Shown here piece after piece: positions 3,268 through 47,871 of a stretch of 60,841 bases of DNA. This stretch comes from an uncultured Candidatus Saccharibacteria bacterium (GTDB lineage: Bacteria > Patescibacteriota > Andersenbacteria > UBA10190). Location of the stretch: the NCBI GenBank assembly GCA_964372635.1, contig CAYJQW010000006.1:1-60841 (forward strand), given 5' to 3'. Under the pieces are notes generated by a model. The model had not been told where the DNA came from. It made no database searches and saw only the letters and a program-made list of their open reading frames with translations. The translations under genes and the position numbers were made by a program. The first letter of the stretch is position 1, and each line of letters starts with the position of its first letter.

Positions 3268-4712
3268 ATATAAATTTTTCAGTTGTCTACATTTCACTTG
3301 GCTTAGTCATAGCCCTAGTCATGGCTGCACTTATTAGCTTGCAGGCTGGTCTGTACGCTAGTTTTTTCCTGGTTTTGTCGTGGTGGGTATGGGAAAACAA
3401 TACAAAAGGGTTCTTCTTTTTTTTAGTCATCGCTCCGCTTTTACCGATTCTTAAAATTACTCAATCGATCGAAACGATAACTCTATTAAAGGACGTCATC
3501 ATAATTTCACTTTTTACCAAGTTGTACTTCATACCGCTATTAACTAAGAGACTGGCCTATAGACGCTCTGCTCTAATGATACCAATAGTTCTTCTTATTT
3601 TTTGGACAGTCGTCAATGTCGGACGATCTGACTCGATGATTCTTGGCGTGCTGCGAGCTCGCGATATTTTACTTTATCTATTACTCTATTTTGTTGTTCT
3701 TTACATGCCTAAAGAAAAAATATTTTACGGTATTGCTGCTCGCTGGTTTTTATCCTCAGCCGCCATTATTACTATGCTTGGCATTTACCAGTGGTTTTTA
3801 ACACCTGACAGTGCGGTCTTACGTTTTGATCCAGCCAGGTCAATCTGGATTCCTAGAATTTCAAGTTTGTTGGCTCATCCCAGTGTTTTTGGGCACTACT
3901 TATTAGCCGTAAGTACACTTTTATTTGCCCTAGTTTTGACTGGGGTACAAAGATTCAGGGTGTGGGCCATTATTTTTTTACTTGGCCTAATGCCATTAGT
4001 TTATTTAACGTATTCCCGAGCGGTCTGGCTTGGTTACGCTATTGCCCTGTTGACCATGAGTGGTACTTATTTTTGGTCGAGGACGTCATGGACGAAATTC
4101 AATGCTATCTTTCAGCCCCGAATTGTCGTTATGAGTTTAATGACTTTAATTTTAGTGCTGCTTGCGATTTTTAAGTTTACCAGTGTCGGAGTTTTTCTAA
4201 AATCATCGATTGATCCGGCCTATGCTAGTAATGCTGAGAGGTTATCCGTAGCGGTTCGTCTCATCGCTCCGCTGACAAATATGGAAGCCCTTGTCGGGCG
4301 GGGACTTGGCAATGTAACTGAGCAAGTTTTTCGAGAGACTCAAGTTAATAGCTTCGCCATTGCCAGTGGTGCTAGCCAAGAAATCCGACAAGCAAAAGAT
4401 ATGACCTTAGTAGATAATCAATATTTGAAAACATTTATTGAACTTGGCTTGACCGGAATACTTCTCTACATCTGGATCTTTGCGATGTGTCTTCGATTAT
4501 CTTTCCAGTTAGTTTTAGAGAACCGCACGCCGACCACAGGAATTATTGGTCTGTGCGGTCTAGGATTTATTAGCGCCTTCATTGTGCAAGGTTTTTTTAT
4601 TGATGTTTGGGATATCTTCCCAACCAATGCATTGTTTTGGATCTTGGTTGGGCTTATTACCGTAGCGTCACAACCGAGTTTTCCTGGCGGTAAATCTAAT
4701 GAACGTGTTTAA
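3264..4712 (+). CDS. O-antigen ligase/polymerase-like (Wzy_C-type) polytopic membrane protein
   Basis: 482 aa with more than 10 hydrophobic helices and a large loop after YSRAVWLGYAIALL, typical of the Wzy/WaaL family. ATGA overlap with the upstream GT2 suggests translational coupling. Confidence 0.6.
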   Translation: MNINFSVVYISLGLVIALVMAALISLQAGLYASFFLVLSWWVWENNTKGFFFFLVIAPLLPILKITQSIETITLLKDVIIISLFTKLYFIPLLTKRLAYRRSALMIPIVLLIFWTVVNVGRSDSMILGVLRARDILLYLLLYFVVLYMPKEKIFYGIAARWFLSSAAIITMLGIYQWFLTPDSAVLRFDPARSIWIPRISSLLAHPSVFGHYLLAVSTLLFALVLTGVQRFRVWAIIFLLGLMPLVYLTYSRAVWLGYAIALLTMSGTYFWSRTSWTKFNAIFQPRIVVMSLMTLILVLLAIFKFTSVGVFLKSSIDPAYASNAERLSVAVRLIAPLTNMEALVGRGLGNVTEQVFRETQVNSFAIASGASQEIRQAKDMTLVDNQYLKTFIELGLTGILLYIWIFAMCLRLSFQLVLENRTPTTGIIGLCGLGFISAFIVQGFFIDVWDIFPTNALFWILVGLITVASQPSFPGGKSNERV

Positions 4713-5728
4713 AAACCTCTTTGGACTTTACGCCAGGTGTCAGTTGCCCATAGGGTCCAATAGCCGGCAGAGAACGGTAAATCTCGAGCGTGCATATAAT
4801 CTAGAGCTTGTCCACCAAAGCCAGTCTTGAATGTTGTAATGCCAGTGAAGGGATGTTTCGGCTTGTTATCAGGAGCAATTCCCCAGAAGTTATAGTAGAG
4901 AAGACCGCGACGCTTGGCCTCTTTGATCGCCCCCCATTGCACAAGTTGGGCAGCAGGCACAGAGCTTGGTAGCCGAAGTGAAGCGCCGTGATAATAAAAC
5001 GCCGTCTTACCATAGATCGGACAAATTGCCGCGGCAACATCAGATCCCTGGTATTGAGCAAAAACTGAGAATATTCTATCCCGATCGCTAAACAATTTTA
5101 ATTGCAGCTCAATTAAATCCCGCGACCAAGGAATAAAGCTATGGCGGTTGCGAGTTTGCTCAGACAGTGGCCAAAATCGATCACCGGCAGAGTCACCAGC
5201 TACGGTTTCAATATTAATACCAGCGCCTTTAGCTTTATTGATGGCATGTCTGGTCGTCTTACGCATATTGTTGAATAAGTAATTTTCGGTAGCTGTGATA
5301 TCAAGTAGCCAGGTTCTTTCGGCATGCACATGCAGCGGAGCTAATCTAAAACCGAGCTGTTTGAACAATTTGTCATTCTTGGTAGTTGAGAGTAGTAAAG
5401 GTGCGATGCGAAGCGCTACTACCCGTTCGCTGGTACTTTTGGCCTGCAGATAATCAATTAGTAAGGGAAGAACGGCGTCAAAGGATTGTTGATCAGCTAA
5501 GATGGGGCCGTGGGGAATTAGGTAATGACGTCCTCGACGAGCGTTTACAGTGATGACTAGGGCTACACCAAGAAGTAGACCATTCTCATAGATACCTAGA
5601 TAACATGTATCCTCTCCACTGTGTGCTTGGACCTGCCCCCACTCCCAGGAATGAAGAAAAGTATTTGGCAATAATGGCAGGATAAAATGCTCCCAGGTTT
5701 GCTGATCATTGATTTCTCGAATTTCCAT
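4709..5728 (-). CDS. FemAB-family peptidyltransferase (lipid II interpeptide-bridge type)
   Basis: 339 aa. Size and motifs match Fem/MurM-type proteins: YLGIYENGLLLGVALV, AAICPIYGKTAFYYHGAS, QWGAIKEAKRRGLLYYNFWGI. The stop codon overlaps the stop of the convergent Wzy-like gene. Confidence 0.7.
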   Translation of the reverse strand: MEIREINDQQTWEHFILPLLPNTFLHSWEWGQVQAHSGEDTCYLGIYENGLLLGVALVITVNARRGRHYLIPHGPILADQQSFDAVLPLLIDYLQAKSTSERVVALRIAPLLLSTTKNDKLFKQLGFRLAPLHVHAERTWLLDITATENYLFNNMRKTTRHAINKAKGAGINIETVAGDSAGDRFWPLSEQTRNRHSFIPWSRDLIELQLKLFSDRDRIFSVFAQYQGSDVAAAICPIYGKTAFYYHGASLRLPSSVPAAQLVQWGAIKEAKRRGLLYYNFWGIAPDNKPKHPFTGITTFKTGFGGQALDYMHARDLPFSAGYWTLWATDTWRKVQRGF

Positions 5729-5779
5729 AAACTTATAAAAAATTTACTCTTAGTTAACGTCTCGCGAACTATTTTTAGC

Positions 5780-7045
5780 TCAAGACTTCACAAAGCTAAT
5801 AACACGGTCTACATCAGACCTTGTCATTAGAGGATAAGTTGGCAAATTAATAGTTTCTTTCGACAGCTTTTCCGCAACAGGACATGATCCGATTTTATAA
5901 TGGCTTATGTCAGATTTGCTAGGAGAGCAAGGTGTAACTGGAGTGCTGTACCAGTCACCCAAGAGTATACGGTGACGCCGCGCTTTCATAAGTACGTCCG
6001 AAGCATCTTTGACACGGTAGGGAACACGAAGCCAAGCAGCGTTATCGAGATTTTTTATTATCTCATCTGACAATTTGAGCGCTTCGGCATAAAGGTATGC
6101 CACGCGCCGGCGATGTTCAGTATAGCGGCGCAACTTTTTCACTTGTTTTAACAGCAGGGGCGCTAAAGCCGGTGAGAACTGCCAGCCAAGGAAATTTGGT
6201 CTGTCACCCGTTTTTTCTTGGGCTGATACAGCCAGGCTGAGGATTTTTAATTTTTGAACAATCACAAGAAGAATTTTGCCAATGCCGCCTTTAAAATATA
6301 GCGGCACAAGAATTGATAACAGGATGGGGTGTAATAGTTGTTGCACATTCCACCACACCGGCGGTAAGGGTAAAGCCTTCTGGCGCGCTCTTATTTTTCC
6401 GATCAATTTTGCGTTTTTACTTACCACGGCGCCACCAAAGATACTTGATATTGTCTTATCACGTCCAAAACTCAAAATTGCCAGATCGCCAAGCGTGCCC
6501 AAGGGATTGGATTCTTGCCATCCGCCGAAACTATGGGCGCAATCTTCAATTAAAAGGATACCTTTTTTCTTAGCAATTTCACGTAAAGCAATCACATTGG
6601 CTGGCAGGCCGAAAGTATGTTGCAAAATGATGGCCTTAGTTTTTGGTGATATTTTATCTTCGACCGAACTTGGATCCAGGTTATATGTTGTTTCTTCAAT
6701 GTCAGCAAAGACTGGTGTTGCTCCAGTCCAAACTACCGCCGCTGGTACAGCCAGACACGTAAATGCTTGGACGATAACCTCATCCTCCACCCCAATACCA
6801 AGACTTTGCAGAGCGTAATATAATGCAGCTCGCCCAGAGCTTGTTAAAACACAAGATTGGCCGGCCATTAGCTCTGAGATTTCATGTTCAATATTGACGC
6901 AAAAATTGTCATTTTTCCAGCGCCATGATTGCAGAAGTGTTCGCCAAGCAAGGCGAATATCGTCTGGCTCTGTATTAGGTGATAATGAAATGACAATAGG
7001 TCGCATAAAATGTAAGCATGAGAAAAACCTGATACGACGGATCAA
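5780..7045 (-). CDS. DegT/DnrJ/EryC1/StrS-family PLP-dependent sugar aminotransferase
   Basis: Fold-type I aminotransferase pattern (EVIVQAFTCLAVPAAV, LIEDCAHSFG) with the active-site Lys context LSFGRDKTISS. The true start is probably Met14 (ATG at 7006, MRPIVISLSPN), not 7045. Confidence 0.8.
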   Translation of the reverse strand: MIRRIRFFSCLHFMRPIVISLSPNTEPDDIRLAWRTLLQSWRWKNDNFCVNIEHEISELMAGQSCVLTSSGRAALYYALQSLGIGVEDEVIVQAFTCLAVPAAVVWTGATPVFADIEETTYNLDPSSVEDKISPKTKAIILQHTFGLPANVIALREIAKKKGILLIEDCAHSFGGWQESNPLGTLGDLAILSFGRDKTISSIFGGAVVSKNAKLIGKIRARQKALPLPPVWWNVQQLLHPILLSILVPLYFKGGIGKILLVIVQKLKILSLAVSAQEKTGDRPNFLGWQFSPALAPLLLKQVKKLRRYTEHRRRVAYLYAEALKLSDEIIKNLDNAAWLRVPYRVKDASDVLMKARRHRILLGDWYSTPVTPCSPSKSDISHYKIGSCPVAEKLSKETINLPTYPLMTRSDVDRVISFVKS

Positions 7046-8638
7046 CTATCTAAGCACTGCCCGGCGGACACTTTTCGGTAATCTTCCGGCCAAGAGCATA
7101 ACGGTATCTGGGTGCAGCATGGCAATTAGTTTGGCTTGAAGTTTATTTGGATTACTGATAAAAGAAATTGTTGCTTTTGATTCTTTAATAGTTGCAAAAC
7201 CAGCCATAATATCATGGCGATAGTTTACACCGGCAACAATGGCTTTTAAACCAGATCTCGCAATTTGTTGCCCAATCTGTCGGTGTGTGGTCGCTGCGGC
7301 CGAGCCAAGTTCAATAAGAGGCATCAAGACAACAATTTTCGACTGCTGAGGGAAACGACTAAGATGATTAATCGCGTCCTGCACGCTGGCAGCATTGGCT
7401 GAATAGCTATCGTCGATAATTGTCGCACCCCTAATAGCGGATCGCAGTTCCATAGTTTTAGGTACAGGCTTAAGTGTATGTAGCGCTTCGGCTATGTCTT
7501 TAGGTTGTAAACCGAGTGATAACGCCAACGCGCAGGCCGACAAAACACTCATTAAACTACCCTCACCAAGTAAGGGAATAATGACCTTAAAAGTCTCTCT
7601 TCTAATATGAAGCTGACACGATATTTCTTTTGATAGAAACTGCAAGTGCGTAATGTAAACATCAGCTGGTTTTTGCGCGGAATACCAGACAATACGCCTT
7701 TTTTCATGTCGAGCCATTTTTCTAATGCGCTGGTCATCGGCGTTGAGAACGGCAATACCATCAGCTGGCAATCCGGCAACTAATTCCCATTTCGCTTGCA
7801 CCAGTTTCTCTTGAGTGCCAAAAAGTTCCAGATGTTGATTACCCATAGCGGTGATGGCGCCAATTTGGGGTTGAGTAAGTTGAACCAGTTCAGCAATCTC
7901 GCCGCGTCTGTATGCTCCCATTTCGACAACATATATTTCTGTTTGCGACGAAAGAGATTTAAGCATGTGCTGGGCGACTGGAAACACAGAATTTAATCTC
8001 TTGGGTGTCACTAAATGGGAGCAGCCGACATAACTGAGAATTTGGTGAAGGAAAAATTTTGTCGAAGTTTTACCAAAACTTCCTGTGATACCAACCACTA
8101 CAAGATTTTTTTGATCATGACGCAAACGTGTCGCGGCAGCTATCATCTTACGTTTGCGTATATGCGTGACAATATTGACGAAACCAACGCTAAAAGCCGT
8201 CACGATAGGAGCTAATAGTATTATTGTCGTCCACTGGACCGAAATCACGATTTGAAAGGTAAGAACATAAATAATTGGAATAATTAACCCAAGTCCAGCT
8301 AGGGTGCCTATCAAGATTGCCTTGGGTGTGAAGCATGGTCGATAAATACCTCGCTGCTTGATTTTCATGACGTGATAAACTGTTAATATGCTCAGCGCAG
8401 ACAACCCAAATGCCGATGCCGATATGTCGTCCCCGTAAATAAACATTGTCCAACCCCCAGCGATCATAAATAAAGCGACAAATAAAATGCTGGCATACTG
8501 ATTCACAGCAGTGTCACGCAGATAGGCCCGTAGGCGATCCAACCGATATTCCTTGCGCTGCCACAGTTCGACCTGTGACAATAAAGTCAGCATGACGATC
8601 GTCATGCCAAGAATGTTCACAAAAATAGCCCACATCAT
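7046..8638 (-). CDS. murF: Mur-ligase family protein, MurF-like central and C-terminal domains fused to an N-terminal 5-TM membrane module
   Basis: P-loop GITGSFGKTST lies at aa 184-194. Mur ligase middle-domain and C-domain motifs are present (NADD, DDSYNAN-like IIDDSYSAN, LMPLIELG..HRQIG). The first ~160 aa are five hydrophobic helices instead of the soluble MurF N-domain. Confidence 0.75.
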   Translation of the reverse strand: MMWAIFVNILGMTIVMLTLLSQVELWQRKEYRLDRLRAYLRDTAVNQYASILFVALFMIAGGWTMFIYGDDISASAFGLSALSILTVYHVMKIKQRGIYRPCFTPKAILIGTLAGLGLIIPIIYVLTFQIVISVQWTTIILLAPIVTAFSVGFVNIVTHIRKRKMIAAATRLRHDQKNLVVVGITGSFGKTSTKFFLHQILSYVGCSHLVTPKRLNSVFPVAQHMLKSLSSQTEIYVVEMGAYRRGEIAELVQLTQPQIGAITAMGNQHLELFGTQEKLVQAKWELVAGLPADGIAVLNADDQRIRKMARHEKRRIVWYSAQKPADVYITHLQFLSKEISCQLHIRRETFKVIIPLLGEGSLMSVLSACALALSLGLQPKDIAEALHTLKPVPKTMELRSAIRGATIIDDSYSANAASVQDAINHLSRFPQQSKIVVLMPLIELGSAAATTHRQIGQQIARSGLKAIVAGVNYRHDIMAGFATIKESKATISFISNPNKLQAKLIAMLHPDTVMLLAGRLPKSVRRAVLR

Positions 8639-8791
8639 ATTTTTAGATTAGTTGTATTTGCCACTGTTTGCCACCATTACGTCTATATTGTATACATGAC
8701 TATCATCTGCGTTCATAAACATGATTTTACTAGATATTTTCCGTCAATCTGGACAGTAGTGCCTAAGGTGCTGGCGCATTAGTATAAGGCT

Positions 8792-11880: not shown

Positions 11881-12777
11881 ATGACTCTTCTTCACGCGAT
11901 ATTTATCTCACTCAGTTGTTGGCTAACTTCAGCTCCAGCAGACGCTAAATGTCCAGATATTGAATCTAATGTCCAGGTGACAGTGGCAGACAAGCAAGCA
12001 TCTGTTTTACCTCGCCTAACAGGTGAATCAATTGATGTCGTCTTAACAGCTAAAGCGGCCTTAGTCTGGGATATAAACAGCGGCCAGGTGCTATATGAAC
12101 GTATGCCAAATGAGCGCCGGCCAATAGCGAGCCTGAGTAAATTACTAACGGCTTTAGTTGTAGTTAGTGAATTGCCGGCTGAAAAAGTAGTACCCATTAC
12201 TTCTTCAGTTATTCAAACACAGCGTCTTGGTGCCGATATACAACTGCCGATCGGCCACATGGTTGGTGTCGACGATCTGCTGGCGGCTGGATTAATTGCT
12301 TCTGCGAACGATGCAATGGTAGCCTTGGCCGAAGCCGTAGCTGGCACTGAAGATAAATTTGTTAGTCTGGCTAACAAGTATGCATTAAATAATGGCCTAT
12401 TTGATACAAAAGTAGCCAATGCGACGGGCCTGTCGGGAGCTGAGCAATATTCAACTGCTCGTGATGTGCAAAAAATGATGTTGTTAGTGGTTAATGAACC
12501 ACGACTTGGCAAATATTTAGCACAATCCAAAGGTGTTTTGATAACCAAAGAAGGAGCACAGCGCTCATATGTATCGACAAATGAATTGTTGAAAACCTAT
12601 GTTCCGATTATTGCGGCCAAGACCGGCTATACTCGTGAAGCTGGGGAGAATTTGGTTATTATTACACGTGGTGTAAACGGTCAGTATATCGGAGCAGTTA
12701 TCCTGGAAAGTCAGGCGCGTTTCCAGGATATGAAAGTGCTGGTCGAGTGGATCTGGCGCAACTATACTTGGCAGTAG
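11881..12777 (+). CDS. D-alanyl-D-alanine carboxypeptidase (peptidase S11, low-MW PBP)
   Basis: N-terminal signal-like segment plus the three PBP boxes: SLSK (SxxK), SAND (SxN), KTGYT (KTG). Confidence 0.8.
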   Translation: MTLLHAIFISLSCWLTSAPADAKCPDIESNVQVTVADKQASVLPRLTGESIDVVLTAKAALVWDINSGQVLYERMPNERRPIASLSKLLTALVVVSELPAEKVVPITSSVIQTQRLGADIQLPIGHMVGVDDLLAAGLIASANDAMVALAEAVAGTEDKFVSLANKYALNNGLFDTKVANATGLSGAEQYSTARDVQKMMLLVVNEPRLGKYLAQSKGVLITKEGAQRSYVSTNELLKTYVPIIAAKTGYTREAGENLVIITRGVNGQYIGAVILESQARFQDMKVLVEWIWRNYTWQ

Positions 12778-12782
12778 CCTCT

Positions 12783-13862
12783 ATGTATGGTTTTTTTGAA
12801 AATCCGGAACAGGTTATTGCGGTAACCCGTGTTCTTGGTATGGCAATTTTAACTTTCATTGTCGCTTTTAGCTTGACTCCCGTTTTAACGCATTATCTTT
12901 ATAAGTATCGCTTTGGAAAAAGCATTCGTAATACAGGCGCCACGCCAATTTATTCCAAACTACATGCTCGCAAAGCTGGCACGCCAGTTGGTGGGGGCAT
13001 CATAGTTTGGGGCAGTGTCACGCTATTAGCCGGGCTATTTTGGGTAATGTCAGTTTTAATTCCATCTCAAGTGACGTTAACCCTAAATTTTTTAACTCGT
13101 CCGCAGACACTTTTGCCATTAGGTGCGCTCATAGCTTCGGCTATTGTCGGCTTCGTCGACGATTACCTAAATGTGAGAAAAATTGGTCCCTCCGGTGGGG
13201 GCTTACATATAGGTCAAAGGCTAATACTTTATACAATAGTTGCAGCTTTTGGTGCTTATTGGTTTTATTACAAACTTGAGTGGAGTATTATTCATGTTCC
13301 TAGTGTCGGTGACTTTGAAATTGGCTGGTGGTATATTCCCCTCTTTATGTTTGTCATCGTTGCGACAGCGTTTTCAGTCAACGAAGCAGACGGCCTCGAC
13401 GGCTTGGCCGGCGGTATGTTGCTCTTTAGTTATTCGGCTTTTACCGCCTTAGCTTTTAGCATTGGCCGGATTGAATTGGCCATGTTCTGTGCTGCTCTTG
13501 TCGGTGGGCTACTGGCTTTTTTATGGTTTAATGTACCCCCAGCTCGGTTTTTTTTGGGTGATACCGGGGCGATGAGCCTCGGTACAACCCTGGGTATCAT
13601 TGCCATGCTGACCAATTCAGCTTTAGTTCTGCCGATTATTGCTTTTCCTCTGGTTCTTGAATCATCGTCAGTTATTGTGCAAGTGCTATCAAAAAAGATT
13701 TTTGGACGAAAGGTATTTTTATCTGCACCAATCCACCACCATTTTGAAGCTATTGGTTGGCCAGAAGCAAAAGTAACAATGCGTTTTTGGATTATTTCAG
13801 CAGTTTTTGCCGGCATCGGACTTGTCATAGGATTAATTGGTCGTGGTAATACGTTATTATAA
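12783..13862 (+). CDS. mraY: phospho-N-acetylmuramoyl-pentapeptide transferase
   Basis: Polytopic protein with MraY motifs (VGFVDDYLNV, NEADGLDGLAGG, FLGDTGAMSLG, HHHFE). I chose the ATG at 12783 (Met13 of the track ORF), 5 nt after the upstream stop. Confidence 0.9.
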   Translation: MYGFFENPEQVIAVTRVLGMAILTFIVAFSLTPVLTHYLYKYRFGKSIRNTGATPIYSKLHARKAGTPVGGGIIVWGSVTLLAGLFWVMSVLIPSQVTLTLNFLTRPQTLLPLGALIASAIVGFVDDYLNVRKIGPSGGGLHIGQRLILYTIVAAFGAYWFYYKLEWSIIHVPSVGDFEIGWWYIPLFMFVIVATAFSVNEADGLDGLAGGMLLFSYSAFTALAFSIGRIELAMFCAALVGGLLAFLWFNVPPARFFLGDTGAMSLGTTLGIIAMLTNSALVLPIIAFPLVLESSSVIVQVLSKKIFGRKVFLSAPIHHHFEAIGWPEAKVTMRFWIISAVFAGIGLVIGLIGRGNTLL

Positions 13863-13889
13863 TAAAACTGCAAGCAGCCGTATTTCTTC

Positions 13890-13898
13890 TGGTACAAT
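13890..13898 (+). promoter_or_regulatory. extended -10 element TGGTACAAT
   Basis: The nonamer TGGTACAAT lies 28 nt after the mraY stop. The identical nonamer recurs at 16729 and 32265, also just downstream of stop codons. Confidence 0.4.
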
Positions 13899-14193
13899 TT
13901 AACTTAATTGGCCGAAAACCACCGCATAAGACCATGGGACCCATAAGAGCTAACGACAAATGTTAACGGCCATTGACTAAATGGTGTTTTACAACTCTTG
14001 CTTTTCGCCCATACTTTCATAAGGTGGTAATATCGTGGTCGCTTGAAGCTGGGAAAAAACTACTATTACAGCAGCACCATCTTAAATAAAGCTTCAAGAA
14101 ACAAAAAAGTTAGGATAGCAACATAATAAAAAATCATAATCAACATGTGAAACAAATGCGGCACAGTTGGTTATAGTTTTTAGATGTAAATTA

Positions 14194-15597
14194 ATGAATA
14201 CAAACCTACATGGCAAAAGAGTTGTGGTGATGGGGCTGGGTGTTCATGGCGGCGCAGCAGGTAACATAAGATGGTTGCACAACCAAGGAGCGCGTTTGAT
14301 TGTAACGGATATCAAAACAAAAGATCAGCTTAAAGAAACCCTTGGAAAATTAAACGATTTATCAGATATAGAGTGGGTTTTAGGACAGCATCGTGACGGA
14401 GATTTTATTCAGGCTGATATGGTCTTGCGTAACCCAGCAATTCCACGCGACTCTCAGTATCTAAAACTGGCTCGGTCGCATGATATCCCCATCGAAATGG
14501 ATTCAAGTCTTTTTTTCAAATATTCTCCGACGGAAAATATTATTGGCGTTACAGGATCAAAGGGTAAAACCACAACAACTCACATTTTAGCCCATTTCCT
14601 CAGCCTAAAATTTGGCCAGGTTGTGCCCATTGGCGTTGAAGGAAGTTCACCTCTAGCGGCTCTGACAAAGCTGCGTTCAGACAGCCTAGTAGTATTCGAG
14701 TTATCGAGTTGGCGTTTAGAAGGCCTCGAGGAATATAAAATAAGTCCGCATACCGCTGTTGTTACAAGTTTATATAGTGACCACCTCAATACATATAAAT
14801 CGTTTGAAGAATATGAATGGACCAAGCAAGCGATCGTGCGCCATCAGCGCGTGACGGATAGAACGCTACTTAATTATGATGATGTTCGCGTGCGTGCTTG
14901 GGCCAATGTTATTCCAGGACGAGTCTTCTGGTTTTCTTTGGGTAATAAATTACCGGGTCCAGGGATTTGCATCGATCGAGGAGTCATCACGATTGAAACA
15001 GATAGCCCAATATCAGGACGGTTACGCTTGTTTGCAGTCAATGCATTGCGCCTGAGCAGCGACCATGCAGTCCGCAATGCCTTACCTGGTATTTATCTAG
15101 CTTGGAGCAACGGTGTTCGGCCAGAAACACTACGTATGCATGCCGGTAATATTGAAGTTCTGCAACATCGCTTAGAACGTATTGCCGTCAAAGATGATGT
15201 TACCTACATTAATGATTCGGCGGCGACTATTCCGGATGCCACCATCGCTGCCTTACGCTCTATCGATCGTCGACATATGGTTTTAATACTTGGCGGCAGT
15301 GATAAAAGATTAAAGTTTGATGAACTAGCTGAAATACTGCCGCACATGCGCATTCGAGGCATTGTTTTTCTACCGGGTACAGCTACAAATTTAATGCGTA
15401 TGGAAATAGAGGCACGATATCGCATCAGTCCAAGAATTGAGGTAGCTTCATCTATGATTGAAGCAGTTCAAATTGCACATCGCTTGGCTCATGAACATGA
15501 CGTCGTCTTACTTTCACCTGGGGCGACAAGCTTTGGAATCTTTCAACACGAATTTGATCGAGGAGAACAATTTCGACAAGCGGTGCGAGCACTGTAA
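14194..15597 (+). CDS. murD: UDP-N-acetylmuramoylalanine--D-glutamate ligase
   Basis: Rossmann-like N-terminus (KRVVVMGLGVHG), P-loop GVTGSKGKTTT, and position between mraY and ftsW. Start chosen at MNTNLHGK (14194). Confidence 0.85.
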   Translation: MNTNLHGKRVVVMGLGVHGGAAGNIRWLHNQGARLIVTDIKTKDQLKETLGKLNDLSDIEWVLGQHRDGDFIQADMVLRNPAIPRDSQYLKLARSHDIPIEMDSSLFFKYSPTENIIGVTGSKGKTTTTHILAHFLSLKFGQVVPIGVEGSSPLAALTKLRSDSLVVFELSSWRLEGLEEYKISPHTAVVTSLYSDHLNTYKSFEEYEWTKQAIVRHQRVTDRTLLNYDDVRVRAWANVIPGRVFWFSLGNKLPGPGICIDRGVITIETDSPISGRLRLFAVNALRLSSDHAVRNALPGIYLAWSNGVRPETLRMHAGNIEVLQHRLERIAVKDDVTYINDSAATIPDATIAALRSIDRRHMVLILGGSDKRLKFDELAEILPHMRIRGIVFLPGTATNLMRMEIEARYRISPRIEVASSMIEAVQIAHRLAHEHDVVLLSPGATSFGIFQHEFDRGEQFRQAVRAL

Positions 15598-15608
15598 GAT
15601 TAGAATAT

Positions 15609-16721
15609 ATGGTGGCACGTAAACCAGCCGGTCGGGTGGACCCTGTTTTGTTATTGATTATTATAGGCTTAACTCTCTTTGGGCTGATTATGGTTACTTC
15701 AGCATCAGCAGTGGTCGCTGAAAAATTTCGCGGTGATACTTTCTTTTTTCTCAAACATCAACTTTATTATGGGGGCACCGTCGGTTTATTTGCGTTTGTG
15801 GCAGCTGTATTTGTACCGTATCGCAATTGGCGTTTGCTCGCCTTACCAGGTCTACTTCTCTCGGTCGTACTGCTGATATTGGTCTTCATCCCTGGGCTAG
15901 CGGTCACGTCCGCTGGGGCTAGCCGATGGATCGGTCTTGGACCCATTACTGTTCAACCAACTGAAATCGTCAAGTTGGCCTTTATTCTGTATTTAGCCGC
16001 ACTTTTCGAGGTTAAAGGCACTGACATTCGAAGCTTTTCAAAAAGCGTTATACCGTTTCTGATTATCATGTCGGTCATTTGCGCTTTAATCGTTCTTCAA
16101 CCAGATGTTGGCACTTTAATGAGTATTATCATAATTGCAGCAGCTATGATATTTGCCGGAGGTTTTCGGTTGTTGCACATTGCGGGATTGGGTCTGGCCG
16201 GAGTCGCCTTTTTTCTCATCCTGGTCAATACTGCTACTTATCGATTAAACCGCATTATTACTTACCTGCATCCTGAACTTGACCCCCAGGGAGTAGGGTA
16301 TCAAATAAATCAAGCCCTACTCGCCGTTGGCAGCGGTGGATTGTGGGGACTTGGCTTCGGCCGAAGCCGGCAAAAATATCAATTTTTACCTGAGCCGGCA
16401 GGAGACTCAATTTTTGCAATCATGGCAGAAGAACTTGGTTTGATCCGCATAATTTTAGTATTGATCGCCTTTGCAATCATTGCCTGGCGAGGCTTCGCTA
16501 TCGCCCAAAGAGCCCCGGATATTTTTGGACGCCTGCTCGCCGTCGGAATAACAACCTGGATTACCAGCCAAACATTCATTAATGCAGGATCGATCCTGGC
16601 CATTACACCACTAACAGGTATTCCTTTGCCTTTTATCAGTTATGGTGGCTCATCTCTTGTCATGATGTTACTAGCAGCAGGTATACTACTGAATATTTCT
16701 CGTTACACACATGTTTCATGA
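15609..16721 (+). CDS. ftsW: SEDS-family peptidoglycan glycosyltransferase FtsW
   Basis: 370-aa, 10-TM SEDS protein (QPTEIVKLAFILYLA, LPEPAGDSIFA, PLTGIPLPFISYGGSS). Called FtsW from murD-ftsW-murG synteny. Confidence 0.85.
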   Translation: MVARKPAGRVDPVLLLIIIGLTLFGLIMVTSASAVVAEKFRGDTFFFLKHQLYYGGTVGLFAFVAAVFVPYRNWRLLALPGLLLSVVLLILVFIPGLAVTSAGASRWIGLGPITVQPTEIVKLAFILYLAALFEVKGTDIRSFSKSVIPFLIIMSVICALIVLQPDVGTLMSIIIIAAAMIFAGGFRLLHIAGLGLAGVAFFLILVNTATYRLNRIITYLHPELDPQGVGYQINQALLAVGSGGLWGLGFGRSRQKYQFLPEPAGDSIFAIMAEELGLIRIILVLIAFAIIAWRGFAIAQRAPDIFGRLLAVGITTWITSQTFINAGSILAITPLTGIPLPFISYGGSSLVMMLLAAGILLNISRYTHVS

Positions 16722-16728
16722 AATACAC

Positions 16729-16737
16729 TGGTACAAT
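16729..16737 (+). promoter_or_regulatory. extended -10 element TGGTACAAT upstream of murG
   Basis: TGGTACAAT begins 8 nt after the ftsW stop and ends 36 nt before the murG ATG. Confidence 0.4.
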
Positions 16738-16773
16738 TATCTAATATCTAGAGCAATGATAACCTAGAAATTT

Positions 16774-17958
16774 ATGCGCATTGTTTTTACGGGTGGGGGT
16801 TCAGGCGGACATTTAATTCCTTTTGCTCCGATAATTGAGACGCTAAGAGTTACTCATCTCGAGCAGCGCACAGGTTTGCCGAAAAGACTAGATCCAAATG
16901 AACTACAACTTTACTTTGTAGGTGTAGCTGATAAGCGAGCACGCGAACTATTTGCTCAGTTAGCGGTACCCGTTTTTGCAATACCTTCAGGTAAATTGAG
17001 AAGCTATCCATCAAGCCAAAACATTATTGATATTATTTTCCGTTTGCCCGTAGGAGTAATTATGGCCATTGTTATTCTCTGGCGTCTCATGCCGGATGTT
17101 GTCGTTAGTAAAGGTGGCTATGGCAGCGTACCGGTAATTTTGTCTGCTTTTCTATTTCGCATACCGATTCTAATGCATGACTCCGATACGGTACCCGGGT
17201 CGGTAACCAGGCACTTGGCCAGATTTGCTTCGACCATCGCGCTTAGCTTTGATGAAGCTCGGGAGCAACTTTTGGCCCAAGCTTCTAAGACAGTTGTTAC
17301 CGGCACGCCGGTTCGATCAGATTTTGGTAGAATGTCTCAGCTGGAAGCAAAACAAAGGCTCAATTTATCCCCTGACGACTTGGCGGTTGTAATCCTCGGT
17401 GGTAGCCAGGGGGCTCGTCAGATTAATGAACTAATATTAAAAATTCTGCCACGCCTTGTTATGGATGCATCAATACTTCACATTACTGGTGAGCGAGAAT
17501 ATTCAGCCGTTGAGTCGCTGGCTAGAAAAATGTTAGAGACTTCTAGTTACAAACAGCGCTACCACGCATTGCCTTATGTATCGACTGATATAGAAACAAT
17601 CTTAAATGCAGCCGATGTTGTCGTATCACGTGCCGGCGCCACTGTGCTGGCAGAGTTGGCCCGTCTTGGTCGGGCAGCACTCTTAATACCGCTGCCAGCC
17701 GATGTTAGCACTCATCAGCGCTCGAATGCTGCCGTCTTTGAAAAATCTGGCGCCGCTCGAGTACTCGATCCCGAAAATCTTGGAGTTAATTTATTTGAAC
17801 AGAGTATAAAGGAATTAGTGATGAATTCTGATCTACGACATGAATTTGCCGTTAGAATTAAATCATTTGATCGACCGCGCGCCGCTCGCGATATCAGCAA
17901 TTTGGTTTACTCATTAGCCAAGGGAAACGTTCCCATTTACGCACAAACGGCGAGTTGA
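16774..17958 (+). CDS. murG: undecaprenyldiphospho-muramoylpentapeptide beta-N-acetylglucosaminyltransferase
   Basis: GGGSGGHLIPF N-terminal G-loop, GGSQGA, SRAGATVLAEL. dcw context. Confidence 0.9.
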   Translation: MRIVFTGGGSGGHLIPFAPIIETLRVTHLEQRTGLPKRLDPNELQLYFVGVADKRARELFAQLAVPVFAIPSGKLRSYPSSQNIIDIIFRLPVGVIMAIVILWRLMPDVVVSKGGYGSVPVILSAFLFRIPILMHDSDTVPGSVTRHLARFASTIALSFDEAREQLLAQASKTVVTGTPVRSDFGRMSQLEAKQRLNLSPDDLAVVILGGSQGARQINELILKILPRLVMDASILHITGEREYSAVESLARKMLETSSYKQRYHALPYVSTDIETILNAADVVVSRAGATVLAELARLGRAALLIPLPADVSTHQRSNAAVFEKSGAARVLDPENLGVNLFEQSIKELVMNSDLRHEFAVRIKSFDRPRAARDISNLVYSLAKGNVPIYAQTAS

Positions 17959-17970
17959 ACTCGCTTTTTT
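17950..17970 (+). terminator. rho-independent terminator overlapping the murG stop
   Basis: Stem GCGAGT/ACTCGC; the loop is the TGA stop itself; followed by TTTTTT. Confidence 0.7.
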
Positions 17971-18102
17971 ATGAGACCAATCTTATATACGAATTTACGG
18001 CAAAGCGTAGTATGGTCTAATGTCTGCCATATTTCTCGAATTCATCAGTGAAAATCTGTCGGTGTGAAACCGGGTCTGTTAAAAAAAGATCTGCAATAAC
18101 AT

Positions 18103-19422
18103 ATGAAAGCAAAGTTAGCATTATTAAATAGGGGAAGTACCCTACTTTTACTGGGGATTGGCGGACAGGCAATGCGCGCCCTAGCGCATATATTACAAAG
18201 TAAGGGAATTAACATTATTGGTGTTGATGCCCAATATGAGCGTGTAAGCAATGATTCCACAATGATCCCTTATAAAATCATTGAGCCGCTTAGCATTCAG
18301 TCGACCTTGTCCCAAGTTGACGCAGTGATTTACTCTGATGCATTGCCAATAACACATCCCTGGCGACAGGCAGCTCAAGAGGTGGCCTGTACACAATTAA
18401 GTGCCTTTGAAACTGCAGGCCTTGTAACCCAAGACTATAAGACGATTGCGGTCGCTGGAACCCACGGGAAATCTTCAACCACGGCCCTTCTTGGGCACAT
18501 CATGGTCATGGCCGGTCTCGATCCAACTGTTCAGGTAGGTGCAGCCGTGCCGGCTTGGGAAAATCGTAATGCCCGTGTCGGGAGTAGCGAATATTTTATT
18601 ATTGAGGCCGATGAGTACATGGATCACTTCATGGCCCTAAAACCGGCCGATATAATTATTACCTCTCTAGATTTTGACCATCCCGATTATTTCCGGTCAT
18701 TTGATGACGTCCTTGCCAGTTTTGGCAATTTTTTAGAAAGGCTTGTTCCGAATGGCACAGTCGTGACACATAAAAGTCTATATATGGCCTTTAAAGATCG
18801 ACTGCCCTGGCCTAAAAAAACGTTATTAGTTGATTTATCAGCCGAGAAACTCCCTTTGTCTTTACCTGGCAAGCATATGCAACAAAACGCGCATTTAGCG
18901 ATCGCTATGGCTGGAATACTAGGCGTCTCTCGAACTATAGCCCAGGAGGCAACTGGGACATTTCCCGGGTTAGGTCGGCGTTTTGAACTATTAGGAGAAT
19001 TTATGGGACGTAAAATATTCAGCGATTATGCTCATCACCCGACGGAAATAGCCGCCACCTTGCAAGCAGCTAGGGAATATTTTCCGCATAAGAAACTACT
19101 GGTAGTTTTTGAACCTCATACCAATGAGAGACTTGGCGCATTCTTTTCTCAGTATATTCAAGCCCTCAGTGCATCAGATGCGATCATAGTTTGTCCAACA
19201 TATCAAGCGCGAGGCCAAGTTAATGACACCCATACAGACACACAATTATTAGAATCCTTACAACAAAGAAAAATTCAGTCGTGGTATCTTCGTGATTTTA
19301 GTGAATTGAACTCGCTGCTGCAAGAAGCTGTTAAAAATTTTGATATTGTCTTTGGACTTACTGCTGGTGATCTTGATTATTATTTGCGGAAATTGATCAA
19401 TGGCTTAAAATTCAAAACATGA
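18103..19422 (+). CDS. murC: UDP-N-acetylmuramate--L-alanine ligase
   Basis: LLGIGGQAM N-domain, P-loop GTHGKSSTT, EADEY, HHPTE motifs. Confidence 0.85.
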   Translation: MKAKLALLNRGSTLLLLGIGGQAMRALAHILQSKGINIIGVDAQYERVSNDSTMIPYKIIEPLSIQSTLSQVDAVIYSDALPITHPWRQAAQEVACTQLSAFETAGLVTQDYKTIAVAGTHGKSSTTALLGHIMVMAGLDPTVQVGAAVPAWENRNARVGSSEYFIIEADEYMDHFMALKPADIIITSLDFDHPDYFRSFDDVLASFGNFLERLVPNGTVVTHKSLYMAFKDRLPWPKKTLLVDLSAEKLPLSLPGKHMQQNAHLAIAMAGILGVSRTIAQEATGTFPGLGRRFELLGEFMGRKIFSDYAHHPTEIAATLQAAREYFPHKKLLVVFEPHTNERLGAFFSQYIQALSASDAIIVCPTYQARGQVNDTHTDTQLLESLQQRKIQSWYLRDFSELNSLLQEAVKNFDIVFGLTAGDLDYYLRKLINGLKFKT

Positions 19423-35471: not shown

Positions 35472-36482
35472 ATGAGAGTAACCAGAAAAATAGCCATCGA
35501 CCTTGGTACGACTAATACCCTCATCTATGTTCCACGCGAGGGTATCGTGCTCAATGAGCCATCTGTGGTCGCGGTGTCAACGCTTGAAAACGCGGTTCTG
35601 GCTATTGGTAATGAGGCAAAGAACATGATTGGAAGAACACCAGAGACGATCGTTGCCCACCGGCCTTTACGCGACGGAGTTATTGCGGATTATAGAGTCA
35701 CGGAAGCAATGCTGCGATATCTCATTAAGAAAACTGGTGCTTCAGTCCGTTTCCTGCGCCCCGAAGTATTAGTATCAGTACCAGCAGGAATTACTAGCAC
35801 TGAGCGACGGGCCGTTGTTGATGCAACCCTCTCGGCTGGAGCTAAGGCTGCCTATCTTATTAAGGAACCTATTGCGGCCGCCATCGGCGCCGGTATCCCG
35901 ATAGGTGAGAGCTCGGGACACATGATAGTTGATATTGGTGGCGGTACGACAGAAGTTGCCGTGATAGCCCTAGGTGGAATAGTCACTGCACACTCAGCTC
36001 GTATTGGTGGTAACAGATTTGATGAATCAATTATTGATCATACTAGAAAGCGTTATGGTCTTGTCATTGGTGAACAGACTGCCGAACATATTAAAAAAAC
36101 TATTGGTTCTGCAGTTCTTGAGGAAGAATCCAAAACGATGGCCATCAGGGGACGTGATATGGCATCGGGATTACCAAAAGAAATTATTATTTCCTCGGCG
36201 GAAATTACGGAGGCTCTTCGCAATCCACTTGACGAGGTAATCTTAGCGATTAAACAAGTGTTACAGGAAACACCTCCTGAACTAGCCGCGGATGTAATCG
36301 ATACCGGTATTGTTATTAGCGGTGGTGGTGCTCTCCTGAGAAATATTGATCAACTGATTACGCGGGCAACAAGTGTGACTTCCTATATCGCTGATGATCC
36401 ACTAGTCTGTGTAGTCAAGGGTGCCGGAGCAGCCCTCGAGAATCTTGATTCTTACAAGAGAAGTGTGCTCTTGAGTAAATGA
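35472..36482 (+). CDS. mreB: rod-shape determining actin homolog MreB (copy 1)
   Basis: IAIDLGTTNTLIYV, RPLRDGVIADY, MIVDIGGGTTEVAVI, GIVISGGGALLRNID. Confidence 0.88.
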   Translation: MRVTRKIAIDLGTTNTLIYVPREGIVLNEPSVVAVSTLENAVLAIGNEAKNMIGRTPETIVAHRPLRDGVIADYRVTEAMLRYLIKKTGASVRFLRPEVLVSVPAGITSTERRAVVDATLSAGAKAAYLIKEPIAAAIGAGIPIGESSGHMIVDIGGGTTEVAVIALGGIVTAHSARIGGNRFDESIIDHTRKRYGLVIGEQTAEHIKKTIGSAVLEEESKTMAIRGRDMASGLPKEIIISSAEITEALRNPLDEVILAIKQVLQETPPELAADVIDTGIVISGGGALLRNIDQLITRATSVTSYIADDPLVCVVKGAGAALENLDSYKRSVLLSK

Positions 36483-45580: not shown

Positions 45581-46816
45581 ATGCGTTATAATAATAGCTT
45601 TATAAAGACAAATAAAGGGGCTAAAAAGTTTGAGTCAGTGAATGCAACATTGCTGCAAAAAGCTGGTTTTATTGATCAGACCATGGCTGGGGTCTACACA
45701 TTTCTACCGCTTGGTTGGAAAGTTCTCAATAATATTGAAAACATTATTCGAAAAGAAATGGATAAGCTTGGTGTGGAATTGTTAATGTCAGCTTTTTCTC
45801 CACGAAGTTTGTGGGAGCAAACAAAACGATCAGACATCGACATTCTTTTCGAGGCACAGGGTGCAAATGACGCATCAAGGCGGAAGAATAAAACGAGGCC
45901 AATCTTAAATCCAACTCATGAGGATGTGATCACACCGATTGCCCTTAAAATCAAGCCTAGCTACAAAGATCTGCCTTATGCTGTTTATCAAATTCAGACA
46001 AAGTTTAGAAACGAGGAAAGACCAAAATCTGGCTTACTTCGCGGACGTGAATTTCGCATGAAAGATCTGTATAGTTTTCACGCCAGCGAGAAAGACCTGT
46101 TAGTATTTTATGAAAAAGTAAAAGCGGCCTACGCAACTATTTTTCAGCAATTGGGCTTAGGCGAAGATACCATCGTTGCCAATGCCTCGGGGGGAGATTT
46201 TACCAGTGGCTTTTCCCATGAATTTAACGCAAAGCTCGAGACCGGCGAGGATACGGTATATTACGATTCGACCAAACATGTCTATTATAACGCTGAGGTT
46301 GCTCCAACAGAGGTCATGGCACAGAATAAACCAATTAAAGTATCCGAGGTAGGTAATATTTTCCCACTGGGCACTAAATTTTCTGAGGCATTTGGTTATT
46401 ATTACACTGACAAGAGCGGACATGAAAAACCCGTCTACATGGCCTCGTATGGCATAGGTTCATCACGTGTTATGGGTGTTATCGCTGAAAAATACCACGA
46501 TGAAAATGGTTTATGCTGGCCGGCACAAGTCGCACCACATCATGTTTATCTTATCGGTATTAATTTGGAAAATATGGAGATTAAGAAATTAGCCGAATCG
46601 TTGTACGAGCGTCTGCGATCAACCGGCATTAATGTATTGCTGGATGATCGCCAAGGTGCTTCCCCGGGCGATAAGCTATCGGATGCAGATCTGATTGGCT
46701 GTCCATGGCGCTTCGTTGTCTCTACCAAGACGGGAAATAAAGTTGAAGTCAAGCAGAGGACAAGTGGTGAGCCAGCGCTAATGTCAGTTGATGATGCATT
46801 AAAACATATTGCATGA
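45581..46816 (+). CDS. proS: proline--tRNA ligase, minimal form without INS editing domain
   Basis: Class II motif 2 (FRNEERPKSGLLRGREFRMKDLYSF), motif 3 (ASYGIGSSRVMG) and a C-terminal class IIa anticodon-binding domain. Only 411 aa. Confidence 0.85.
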   Translation: MRYNNSFIKTNKGAKKFESVNATLLQKAGFIDQTMAGVYTFLPLGWKVLNNIENIIRKEMDKLGVELLMSAFSPRSLWEQTKRSDIDILFEAQGANDASRRKNKTRPILNPTHEDVITPIALKIKPSYKDLPYAVYQIQTKFRNEERPKSGLLRGREFRMKDLYSFHASEKDLLVFYEKVKAAYATIFQQLGLGEDTIVANASGGDFTSGFSHEFNAKLETGEDTVYYDSTKHVYYNAEVAPTEVMAQNKPIKVSEVGNIFPLGTKFSEAFGYYYTDKSGHEKPVYMASYGIGSSRVMGVIAEKYHDENGLCWPAQVAPHHVYLIGINLENMEIKKLAESLYERLRSTGINVLLDDRQGASPGDKLSDADLIGCPWRFVVSTKTGNKVEVKQRTSGEPALMSVDDALKHIA

Positions 46817-47871
46817 GAATTTCCGACCGAATATTTGGGCCATTTTCACAGGATATTGGCATAGATCTTGGTACAGCTAATACCCTAGTGTATGTCCGGG
46901 GTAAGGGTATTGTGATTAATGAGCCATCGGTGGTCGCTATTAATACCAATACGAATGCTGTACTGGCCATAGGTAAAGAAGCACAGCGGATGGTAGGCAA
47001 GACGCCAGCTCATATTGTGGCCATACGACCATTGCGTGATGGGGTTATCTCCGATTTTGAGGTTACAGAGCAAATGTTGCGTTACTTTATCCAACGTGTT
47101 CACCAGGATGGATTTCATTTGTTGCCACGCCCTCGCGTCGTCATTGGCCTACCATCATCGGTCACAGAGGTCGAAAGACGTGCCGTCGAGGAGGCAACTT
47201 TGCGGGCAGGGGCTAGACGCGCGTTTCTTATTGAAGAAGCAATGGCAGCAGCAATCGGCGCTCGTCTTCCCGTTCATGAGGCTACCGGGACAATGATAGT
47301 TGATATTGGGGGTGGGACAACTGAAATTGCAGTTATCTCTTTAGGTGGATTGGTTGTCAGTAAAACACTGCGCACTGCTGGAGATGAAATGAATGAAAAC
47401 ATTGTTCAATATGCTCGAGAGAATTTCAATTTACTTCTAGGCGAGAGGACAGCTGAACAAGTTAAGATGAGAATCGGGGCCGTTATTGATTTACCTGAGC
47501 CTCTTGAGACGCCGGTCCGAGGACGAGACTTAGTAACAGGTTTGCCTAAAGAAATCATAATGAATAGTCATCAGGTGAAGGAAGCAATTAATAAATCAAT
47601 CTCCGCCATCATTGAAGCTGTTAAAAACACTATTGAAGAAACGCCCCCAGAACTTATATCAGACATTTTAGAGCAAGGCATTGTTTTGGCTGGTGGGGGA
47701 GGCCTCGTTCGTGGCTTCGATCAAGTTTTGACTCAGGCAACTCAAATTTCATCGCGTTTTACCGATGATCCCATGACTGCTGTTGTTCGTGGCACGGGCA
47801 TTGTCCTTGAAGATCTAGAGGCCGTACAGGAATTGTTGCTGCCTAGCGTTCATGGAGCTCGATTAAAATAG
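46813..47871 (+). CDS. mreB: rod-shape determining actin homolog MreB (copy 2)
   Basis: IGIDLGTANTLVYV, RPLRDGVISDF, MIVDIGGGTTEIAVI, GIVLAGGGGLVRGFD. ATGA overlap with the proS stop. Followed by mreC and mreD. Confidence 0.9.
   Translation: MRISDRIFGPFSQDIGIDLGTANTLVYVRGKGIVINEPSVVAINTNTNAVLAIGKEAQRMVGKTPAHIVAIRPLRDGVISDFEVTEQMLRYFIQRVHQDGFHLLPRPRVVIGLPSSVTEVERRAVEEATLRAGARRAFLIEEAMAAAIGARLPVHEATGTMIVDIGGGTTEIAVISLGGLVVSKTLRTAGDEMNENIVQYARENFNLLLGERTAEQVKMRIGAVIDLPEPLETPVRGRDLVTGLPKEIIMNSHQVKEAINKSISAIIEAVKNTIEETPPELISDILEQGIVLAGGGGLVRGFDQVLTQATQISSRFTDDPMTAVVRGTGIVLEDLEAVQELLLPSVHGARLK

Follow-up and report, generated by a model that had tools for sequence, protein, structure and literature searches.

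Textbooks present MurF as a soluble enzyme of the cytoplasm, and it has long been an antibiotic target. In the soluble enzyme domain 1 packs beside the linker and helps to bind the nucleotide end of the acceptor. Other members of the Mur ligase family act at the membrane: PgsB/CapB is an amide ligase in the membrane complex of the poly-gamma-glutamate synthetase, and MurT of the lipid II isoglutaminyl synthase MurT/GatD works at the membrane on a lipid-linked precursor. Domain 1 of the Mur ligases binds uridine diphosphate (UDP)-N-acetylmuramic acid (MurNAc)-peptide, and a survey of Mur chimeras (MurE-MurF, MurD-FtsW and MraY-MurG) read these fusions as favouring complex formation and hand-over; it mentions neither a membrane form of MurF nor bacteria of the Candidate Phyla Radiation (CPR, Patescibacteria) (PMC10214165). 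Here we analyze a MurF-like ligase encoded on a stretch of 60,841 nucleotides (60.8 kb, in the following the window) from an uncultured bacterium deposited as Candidatus Saccharibacteria (assembly GCA_964372635.1, contig CAYJQW010000006.1). In this protein domain 1 is exchanged for a module of predicted transmembrane (TM) helices, and we regard the protein as a likely membrane-integral orthologue of MurF. We found no description of a membrane-embedded MurF in the full-text literature that is searchable without subscription.

The open reading frame (ORF) codes for 530 amino acids (aa) from an ATG start. An in-frame TAA is located four codons 5’ of this ATG, which fixes the N-terminus and leaves the ORF without further extension. 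The region from 6900 to 8800, including the junction between module and ligase, shows 0 substitutions and 0 indels against contigs of four metagenome runs from two studies. A Pfam scan, as the earlier note on this sequence had proposed, detected Mur_ligase_M (PF08245, 118.6 bits, aa 184-372, E = 4e-34) and Mur_ligase_C (PF02875, 42.1 bits, aa 396-519, E = 2e-10), both above the gathering score, and no Pfam domain, including the Mur ligase N-domain, ahead of aa 184. The top NCBIfam family is murF (TIGR01143), whose 418-position profile aligns from 59 to 402 with 237.6 bits; the remaining Mur ligase families score far below it, and a homologue from Levyibacteria reaches 243.2 bits with the same model. 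The best sequence matches in the PDB are the MurF proteins of Pseudomonas aeruginosa (PaMurF) and Escherichia coli (EcMurF), aligned from their residue ~100 on. The structure comparison likewise proposed beforehand gave MurF for all of the top 9 Foldseek matches, with ~377 aligned columns and template modelling scores of up to 0.74 (target-normalised).

Among 202 full-length relatives the P-loop lysine, E239, H269, K283, N299, D409/D410, the ELG...H motif and R519 are 96–100% conserved. For K190, E239, H269, K283 and D409/D410, whose catalytic roles are judged by sequence position only, conservation amounts to 98–100%. K283 is the carbamylated-lysine position of MurD, MurE and MurF, and position 394 is K in the window protein and mostly R in its subfamily. 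The alignment with PaMurF and EcMurF further revealed the MurF-type C-terminal motifs DDSYSAN (aa 409-415) and IELG...H (aa 442-452). With both a GxxGK(T/S)-type P-loop and a C-terminal Mur ligase domain, the core belongs to the Mur ligase superfamily and is MurF-like; it deviates from the definition of MurF in domain 1, in the curated score and, within the subfamily of the window protein, in two signature motifs. Regarding its domains it is a MurF-type ligase short of domain 1 only: there is no Pfam N-domain, the profile match begins at position 59, and five TM helices are found instead.

The central and C-terminal domains are like those of soluble MurF from E. coli (1GG4), P. aeruginosa (4CVK/4CVM), A. 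baumannii (4QF5) and T. maritima (3ZL8), with which the protein shares the P-loop, the Glu that binds Mg, the His, the position of the carbamylated lysine and the motifs DDxYxAN and ELG...H. In contrast to these enzymes, domain 1 (~80–100 aa) is exchanged for a ~160-aa five-TM module with invariant motifs of its own, the window protein is predicted to be integral to the membrane, and GNxNN and GxHNxxN have diverged in its subfamily. MurT is also a Mur ligase-family protein, but it is soluble, has DUF1727 as its C-terminal domain and depends on the glutaminase GatD. MurT models reach only ~30 bits against a cutoff of 800 for the Levyibacteria homologue, and no GatD-like neighbor of the membrane murF is present in the annotations of the window and the related loci. 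PgsB/CapB differs in its substrates and has neither MurF-type C-terminal motifs nor a comparable multi-helix module; no PgsB/CapB model is among the Pfam and NCBIfam matches of the window protein. The Mur chimeras (PMC10214165) are also murein-enzyme fusions, some of which join a Mur ligase to a polytopic membrane protein, yet they fuse two complete known enzymes, whereas the membrane MurF swaps a domain for a module without known stand-alone relative.

The Kyte-Doolittle hydropathy (19-aa window) of the module peaks above 1.6 at aa 1-23, 48-69, 104-125 and 134-157 and is weaker, about 1.2, at aa 73-91. The AlphaFold2 model of the 530-aa protein, built with 25 homologues as input, has a mean predicted local distance difference test (pLDDT) of 92.5 and a predicted template modelling score (pTM) of 0.88, and holds module and ligase in one rigid model. 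It places helices at aa 2-28, 33-41 (short), 45-67, 71-96, 105-127 and 132-175, the fifth membrane helix continuing unbroken as the helix ahead of the ligase's first strand and P-loop. The mean number of Lys and Arg residues in the 202 homologues is 4.9 in loop 1, 3.1 in loop 3 and 6.0 in the linker after TM5, but 0.2 in loop 2 and 0.4 in loop 4. These loop charges obey the positive-inside rule, from which we infer a five-TM topology with the N-terminus outside and the C-terminus inside, so that both motifs of the module as well as the ligase would be cytoplasmic. Hydropathy, model and loop charges hence bear out the five N-terminal hydrophobic helices described in the earlier note, and the Pfam and TIGR01143 results agree with its claim that they replace the MurF N-domain. 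The basic linker HIRKRK and the P-loop following it are also present, although the numbering given there for the P-loop (184-194) was off by one.

Two motifs stand out in the module. Motif 1 (WQxKEYRxDR) directly follows TM1 and motif 2 (RPxxTxK) precedes TM4. Both are 93–100% conserved in the full-length relatives and thereby reach the level of the catalytic residues; for motif 2 the values are 93% (R100), 100% (P101) and 98% (T104). The motif residues are kept across both CPR subfamilies. Among close relatives the module is as conserved as the protein overall, with a mean column identity of 44% against 43%. We also noticed relatives with three TM helices, in which exactly the TM2-TM3 hairpin is missing and both motifs are retained, their spacing being ~37 residues as compared to 74 in the five-TM form. 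Retention of both motifs without the hairpin agrees with the topology and suggests that the two motifs act together. Because two motifs at the cytoplasmic face are conserved like catalytic residues, the module is probably functional and not a loose anchor.

Scanning 20 members against Pfam yielded no consistent family for the module but scattered chance matches, and no fold match was found in the PDB (best Foldseek E = 0.66). A reading of its “RP” as part of the PAP2 motif KxxxxxxRP was dropped, since the PSGH and SRxxxxxHxxxD motifs are absent.

To assess the distribution of the module we searched a profile of its first ~168 residues against 1.84 billion representative proteins (E ≤ 0.001). 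The profile matched 574 protein clusters, nearly all of them 480–600 aa long with the module at the N-terminus, and all matches long enough to judge run on into a MurF-like ligase. Every short match reaches the P-loop or stops within the module at a contig end and is a contig-end fragment; a stand-alone or otherwise fused module was not present among the profile matches. All distant members tested carry Mur_ligase_M and Mur_ligase_C. The closest relatives (37–45% identity) are labelled Candidatus Andersenbacteria. A motif scan with one genome per species gave 21 loci from metagenome-assembled genomes (MAGs) labelled Andersenbacteria, Saccharibacteria, Patescibacteria or “bacterium”, the Saccharibacteria label being the submitters’ own and unconfirmed.

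In a second search only the catalytic part of a distant member served as query. The best 120 matches are long (mostly 480–636 aa) and all lack the N-domain, and most show both motifs and three to seven hydrophobic segments ahead of the P-loop. Named matches among them are annotated as MurF from Peregrinibacteria, Gracilibacteria, Gottesmanbacteria, Levyibacteriota and the “Patescibacteria group”; database names for the membrane forms are simply MurF or “Mur ligase family protein”. This indicates that the membrane form is the common MurF in the CPR lineages sampled. The earlier note had treated the protein as an oddity, a view that the 574 clusters and the best 120 catalytic-part matches do not support, and the survey of relatives it had suggested found the fusion widespread, in MAGs labelled Andersenbacteria, Peregrinibacteria, Gracilibacteria, Gottesmanbacteria and Levyibacteria. 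The coordinates of the protein, its parts and the neighboring genes are listed in Table 1.

Table 1. Location of the membrane-embedded ligase, its segments and its neighbors in the window.
Feature	Position	Strand	Evidence
Membrane-embedded MurF-like ligase, complete ORF, 530 aa	7046..8638	-	ORF, Pfam, TIGR01143, cross-run contig match
Predicted five-TM N-terminal module, aa 1-160	8159..8638	-	hydropathy, AlphaFold2 helices, 574 clusters, no Pfam or PDB match
TM1, aa 2-25	8564..8635	-	hydropathy, AlphaFold2
Motif 1, W26-Q-R-K-E-Y-R-L-D-R35, cytoplasmic end of TM1	8534..8563	-	97–100% conserved in 202 homologues; in both CPR subfamilies
TM2, aa 48-67	8438..8497	-	hydropathy, AlphaFold2; absent together with TM3 in 3-TM variants
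TM3, aa 73-93, weaker hydropathy	8360..8422	-	hydropathy, AlphaFold2
Motif 2, G97-I-Y-R-P-C-F-T104 (then P-K), cytoplasmic loop TM3-TM4	8327..8350	-	conservation
TM4, aa 106-127	8258..8323	-	hydropathy, AlphaFold2
TM5, aa 134-157, runs on as linker helix to aa 175	8168..8239	-	hydropathy, AlphaFold2
Basic linker HIRKRK, aa 159-164	8147..8164	-	sequence position
ATP-binding P-loop GITGSFGKTST, aa 183-193	8060..8092	-	sequence position, conservation
Mur ligase central (ATP-binding) domain, aa 184-372	7523..8089	-	Pfam PF08245, E = 4e-34
Mur ligase C-terminal domain, aa 396-519, with DDSYSAN and ELG...H	7082..7453	-	Pfam PF02875; PaMurF/EcMurF alignment
DegT/DnrJ/EryC1-like pyridoxal phosphate (PLP) enzyme, 408 aa from ATG, next gene	5780..7006	-	conserved insert of ~75 aa
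FemAB/FemX-like aminoacyl-tRNA transferase, third gene of the unit	4709..5728	-	neighborhood comparison
Murein cluster: S11 DD-carboxypeptidase, MraY, MurD, FtsW, MurG, MurC	11881..19422	+	window annotation

The membrane murF is part of a conserved unit that does not appear in the earlier note. In all Andersenbacteria-type loci extending far enough (25/25) a DegT-like gene and then a FemAB/FemX-like gene follow 3’ on the same strand. One flank of these loci carries glycosyltransferases, ScpAB, an S11 DD-carboxypeptidase and mraY-murD-ftsW-murG-murC, the other one Wzy-like, glycosyltransferase and Wzx-like genes. Near the unit a ~870-aa fusion of a Wzx-like Polysacc_synt flippase with a GT1/GT4 glycosyltransferase recurs (L001 19607.., L002 17281..19896, L004 17775..20411, L007 16248..18887, L032 5337..7940). 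The other CPR lineages (6 loci and the gene table P0229 without DNA) keep the unit in wholly different surroundings. There, in every non-Andersenbacteria lineage examined, an alpha/beta hydrolase of ~235–280 aa, weakly EstV-lipase-like, is located directly 5’ of the membrane murF, resulting in a four-gene unit (L006, L029, L030, L031, L032, L033, L034); the hydrolase is not adjacent to murF in the window or its close relatives. In one CPR lineage a 68-aa DUF5652 gene (L034 11641..11847, +) lies between the membrane murF and the DegT-like gene.

The gene order is murE-murC-murB-murA-glmU-x-glmS-hydrolase-[membrane murF-degT-femX]-mraY-ftsW-murG-x-ftsA-ftsZ in Levyibacteria and glmS-hydrolase-[membrane murF-degT-femX]-dgkA-like-mraY-ftsW-murG-x-ftsA-ftsZ in Gottesmanbacteria. 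In both the unit is located just 5’ of mraY, close to the usual position of murF. The MurE of the Levyibacteria cluster (L031 473..1669, +) is 398 aa long and matches TIGR01085 with 393.7 bits at profile positions 70-471. Its P-loop lies ~40 residues from the start and the ORF has no possible upstream extension, so that the UDP-binding N-domain is lacking, with no membrane module instead.

In the window the membrane murF is located 4 kb from mraY on the opposite strand, and the murein cluster has no murE or murF ahead of mraY. The Mur ligase genes of the window are three: the membrane murF, murD and murC. We detected no second MurF-type ligase in the window or in 34 related loci, the Levyibacteria and Gottesmanbacteria clusters included, and no second murF, murE or ddl in the window, which covers 60.8 kb only and not the whole genome. 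An S11 DD-carboxypeptidase and a class B penicillin-binding protein (PBP) are also encoded in the window, implying D-Ala-D-Ala-ended precursors. A scan for promoters and terminators gave results at chance level.

Some further observations concern the murein genes themselves. Ahead of mraY, scpA-scpB-dac takes the usual place of murE-murF in the window, and the carboxypeptidase ORF (11881..12777, +) overlaps the mraY ORF (12747..13862, +) by 31 nt. Two MreB paralogues (35472..36482 and 46813..47871, +) are found in the same stretch as MreC, the class B PBP and MurA. In L017 a 927-aa fusion (3419..6202, -) combines a MurL-type UDP-MurNAc-L-Ala-L-Glu epimerase (NF041275, 295.6 bits) with MurD, a hint that the MurD2/MurL route to D-Glu is in use in some Andersenbacteria.

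In the DegT-like partner the PLP-lysine region is retained, and strong matches to sugar aminotransferases (QdtB, PseC, ArnB) are confined to its N-terminal half. In the window and in the orthologues from L002, L006, L029, L030 and L031 it contains a conserved, amphipathic to hydrophobic insert of ~75 aa (about aa 196-270 when numbered from the ATG at 7006). A transmembrane hairpin in this insert was considered and dropped because hydropathy is moderate and below threshold in two lineages. Searching for homologues of the DegT-like enzyme in other gene contexts returned only Andersenbacteria orthologues. The best match of the FemX-like partner, a weak one, is the UDP-precursor-specific FemX, and MraY is ordinary and highly conserved. 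In L032, from a MAG labelled Gracilibacteria, the FemAB-like gene (13030..14058, +) is split by one stop into two ORFs in the same frame; UGA recoding was rejected as the cause, since the stop is TAG and not TGA.

On the basis of what was observed, namely the architecture and how well it is conserved, a catalytic apparatus of MurF type and the neighboring genes, we propose the following mechanism. The MurF of CPR/Patescibacteria would add D-Ala-D-Ala to the MurNAc-tripeptide precursor in an ATP-dependent reaction as an integral membrane protein, D-Ala-D-Ala being the presumed donor. The acceptor-holding domain 1 would be exchanged for a helical membrane module, with five helices in the window protein and three in some relatives. 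The continuous helix formed by TM5 and linker may keep ATP and active site near the inner membrane face, and the cytoplasmic loops with both motifs should occupy the usual place of domain 1, judging from the topology and from homology to soluble MurF. The motifs would then most likely be part of the binding site for the nucleotide or pyrophosphate-sugar end of the acceptor, and in addition offer a docking surface for partners. The FemX-like transferase and MraY may then receive the product at the membrane. That the module takes over part of acceptor binding, with hand-over of the product to these two, is the version towards which we lean slightly.

Several points weigh against a MurF orthologue acting in this way. 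The TIGR01143 score of 237.6 bits is below the trusted cutoff of 288.6 bits, a shortfall about equal to the contribution of the 58 missing profile positions. In the window protein and its Andersenbacteria relatives three MurF signatures have changed: GNxNNxxGxP to xHRNSxxxVA, GxHNxxN to S/G-x-G/A-x-L-x-S and NANP to SANE. In place of the loop signature T-x-G-N-x-N-N-x-x-G-x-P the window protein has TPKRLNSVFPVA, with only N216 kept, and in place of the adenine-binding GxHNxxN it has GEGSLMS (aa 358-364). Other CPR members read TPGNxNTEIGVA in the loop and keep G-x-H/Q-N-x-S-N, and those outside the Andersenbacteria retain all three canonical signatures. Judged by sequence, the window protein belongs to a derived subfamily with three drifted MurF signatures. 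The proposed contact between motifs and active site is deduced from topology and homology to soluble MurF. The membrane protein is presumably the only MurF of the cell, but the genome beyond the window could hold a soluble murF. Finally, the textbook pathway offers no role for a DegT-like enzyme, to which the gene is universally coupled.

The earlier note had offered two alternatives, a ligase tethered to the membrane where MraY and the lipid-linked steps are located, or a non-canonical MurF with a different, possibly lipid-linked, acceptor. The MurF-like sequence and fold and the location just 5’ of mraY in Levyibacteria and Gottesmanbacteria make the former the better supported one, with the reservation that “tether” is probably too weak a word. 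The main rival takes the tether literally: the protein would be a housekeeping MurF with a module that serves only as anchor or scaffold next to MraY, MurG and partner enzymes. The central and C-terminal domains would suffice to bind the acceptor, and the motifs would be needed for protein docking or folding. It is assumed that membrane scaffolds recruit soluble Mur ligases, and the natural fusions MurD-FtsW and MraY-MurG exist (PMC10214165). The Levyibacteria MurE without N-domain and with nothing in its place also fits, as domain 1 is perhaps dispensable in this lineage. However, three to five helices are more than a simple anchor usually requires, an anchor seldom has ten near-invariant charged residues that very divergent lineages conserve like a catalytic site, and the module substitutes for domain 1 and is not added to it. 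We therefore regard a pure anchor as possible but unlikely.

A second possibility concerns the acceptor. D-Ala-D-Ala might be added to undecaprenyl-pyrophosphoryl-MurNAc-tripeptide (lipid I/II tripeptide) and not to the UDP precursor, with the module and its basic motifs binding polyprenyl-pyrophosphate in place of UDP. What the membrane module replaces is precisely the UDP-binding domain, the Arg/Lys-rich invariant motifs lie where membrane and cytosol meet, and MurE of the related Levyibacteria cluster is also without UDP-binding domain. MurT, a Mur ligase relative acting on lipid II, provides a precedent, and some FemX-type partners act on lipid II. On the other hand, the order murF-degT-femX-mraY in Levyibacteria and Gottesmanbacteria is colinear with the classical order, the FemX-like partner points, if weakly, to the UDP-precursor-specific FemX, and MraY shows nothing out of the ordinary, making this reading quite doubtful. 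If it applied, the last stem-peptide additions in CPR would take place on a lipid-linked precursor, with MurE alongside and MraY acting earlier than in the textbook, a scheme to which we assign the same low probability; the DegT-like, FemX-like and hydrolase partners might then complete a radiation-specific membrane-bound complex for finishing the precursor.

The protein could also be a paralogue and not the MurF of the cell, decorating or building another envelope molecule, e.g. a peptide-substituted amino sugar on a lipid carrier, together with the DegT-like and FemX-like enzymes (and the hydrolase outside the Andersenbacteria). The three- or four-gene unit is kept even far from the murein cluster, in the window it sits among glycosyltransferases, a Wzy-like protein and the Wzx-like flippase fusion, and the canonical MurF signatures are eroded in the subfamily of the window protein. 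Its position makes this less likely: the gene is found just 5’ of mraY within complete murein clusters in which it is the only murF. The protein still has the C-terminal motifs specific to MurF, its gene is conserved across tiny genomes in which peptidoglycan synthesis is maintained, and FemX-type enzymes are themselves enzymes of peptidoglycan precursors, so that we consider a paralogue improbable. An artefact, in which a frameshift or misassembly fuses the gene of a small membrane protein to a truncated murF, as the earlier note had cautioned, can be dismissed given the upstream in-frame stop, the identical junction in contigs of four runs, the hundreds of homologues with the same unbroken ORF (more than 100 full-length ones keeping the architecture) and the one continuous helix that AlphaFold2 predicts over the junction.

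Taken as a membrane-integral orthologue, MurF would be embedded in the membrane in all lineages sampled from a very large bacterial radiation. If this is true, the boundary between the “cytoplasmic” and the “membrane” stages of peptidoglycan synthesis lies elsewhere in CPR, which raises the question whether the motifs of the module bind UDP or polyprenyl pyrophosphate. The unit of hydrolase, membrane MurF, DegT-like and FemX-like enzymes may reflect an unusual branch or stem peptide in the walls of CPR bacteria. The membrane MurF would also provide a lineage-specific marker and a target for these mostly uncultured epibionts.

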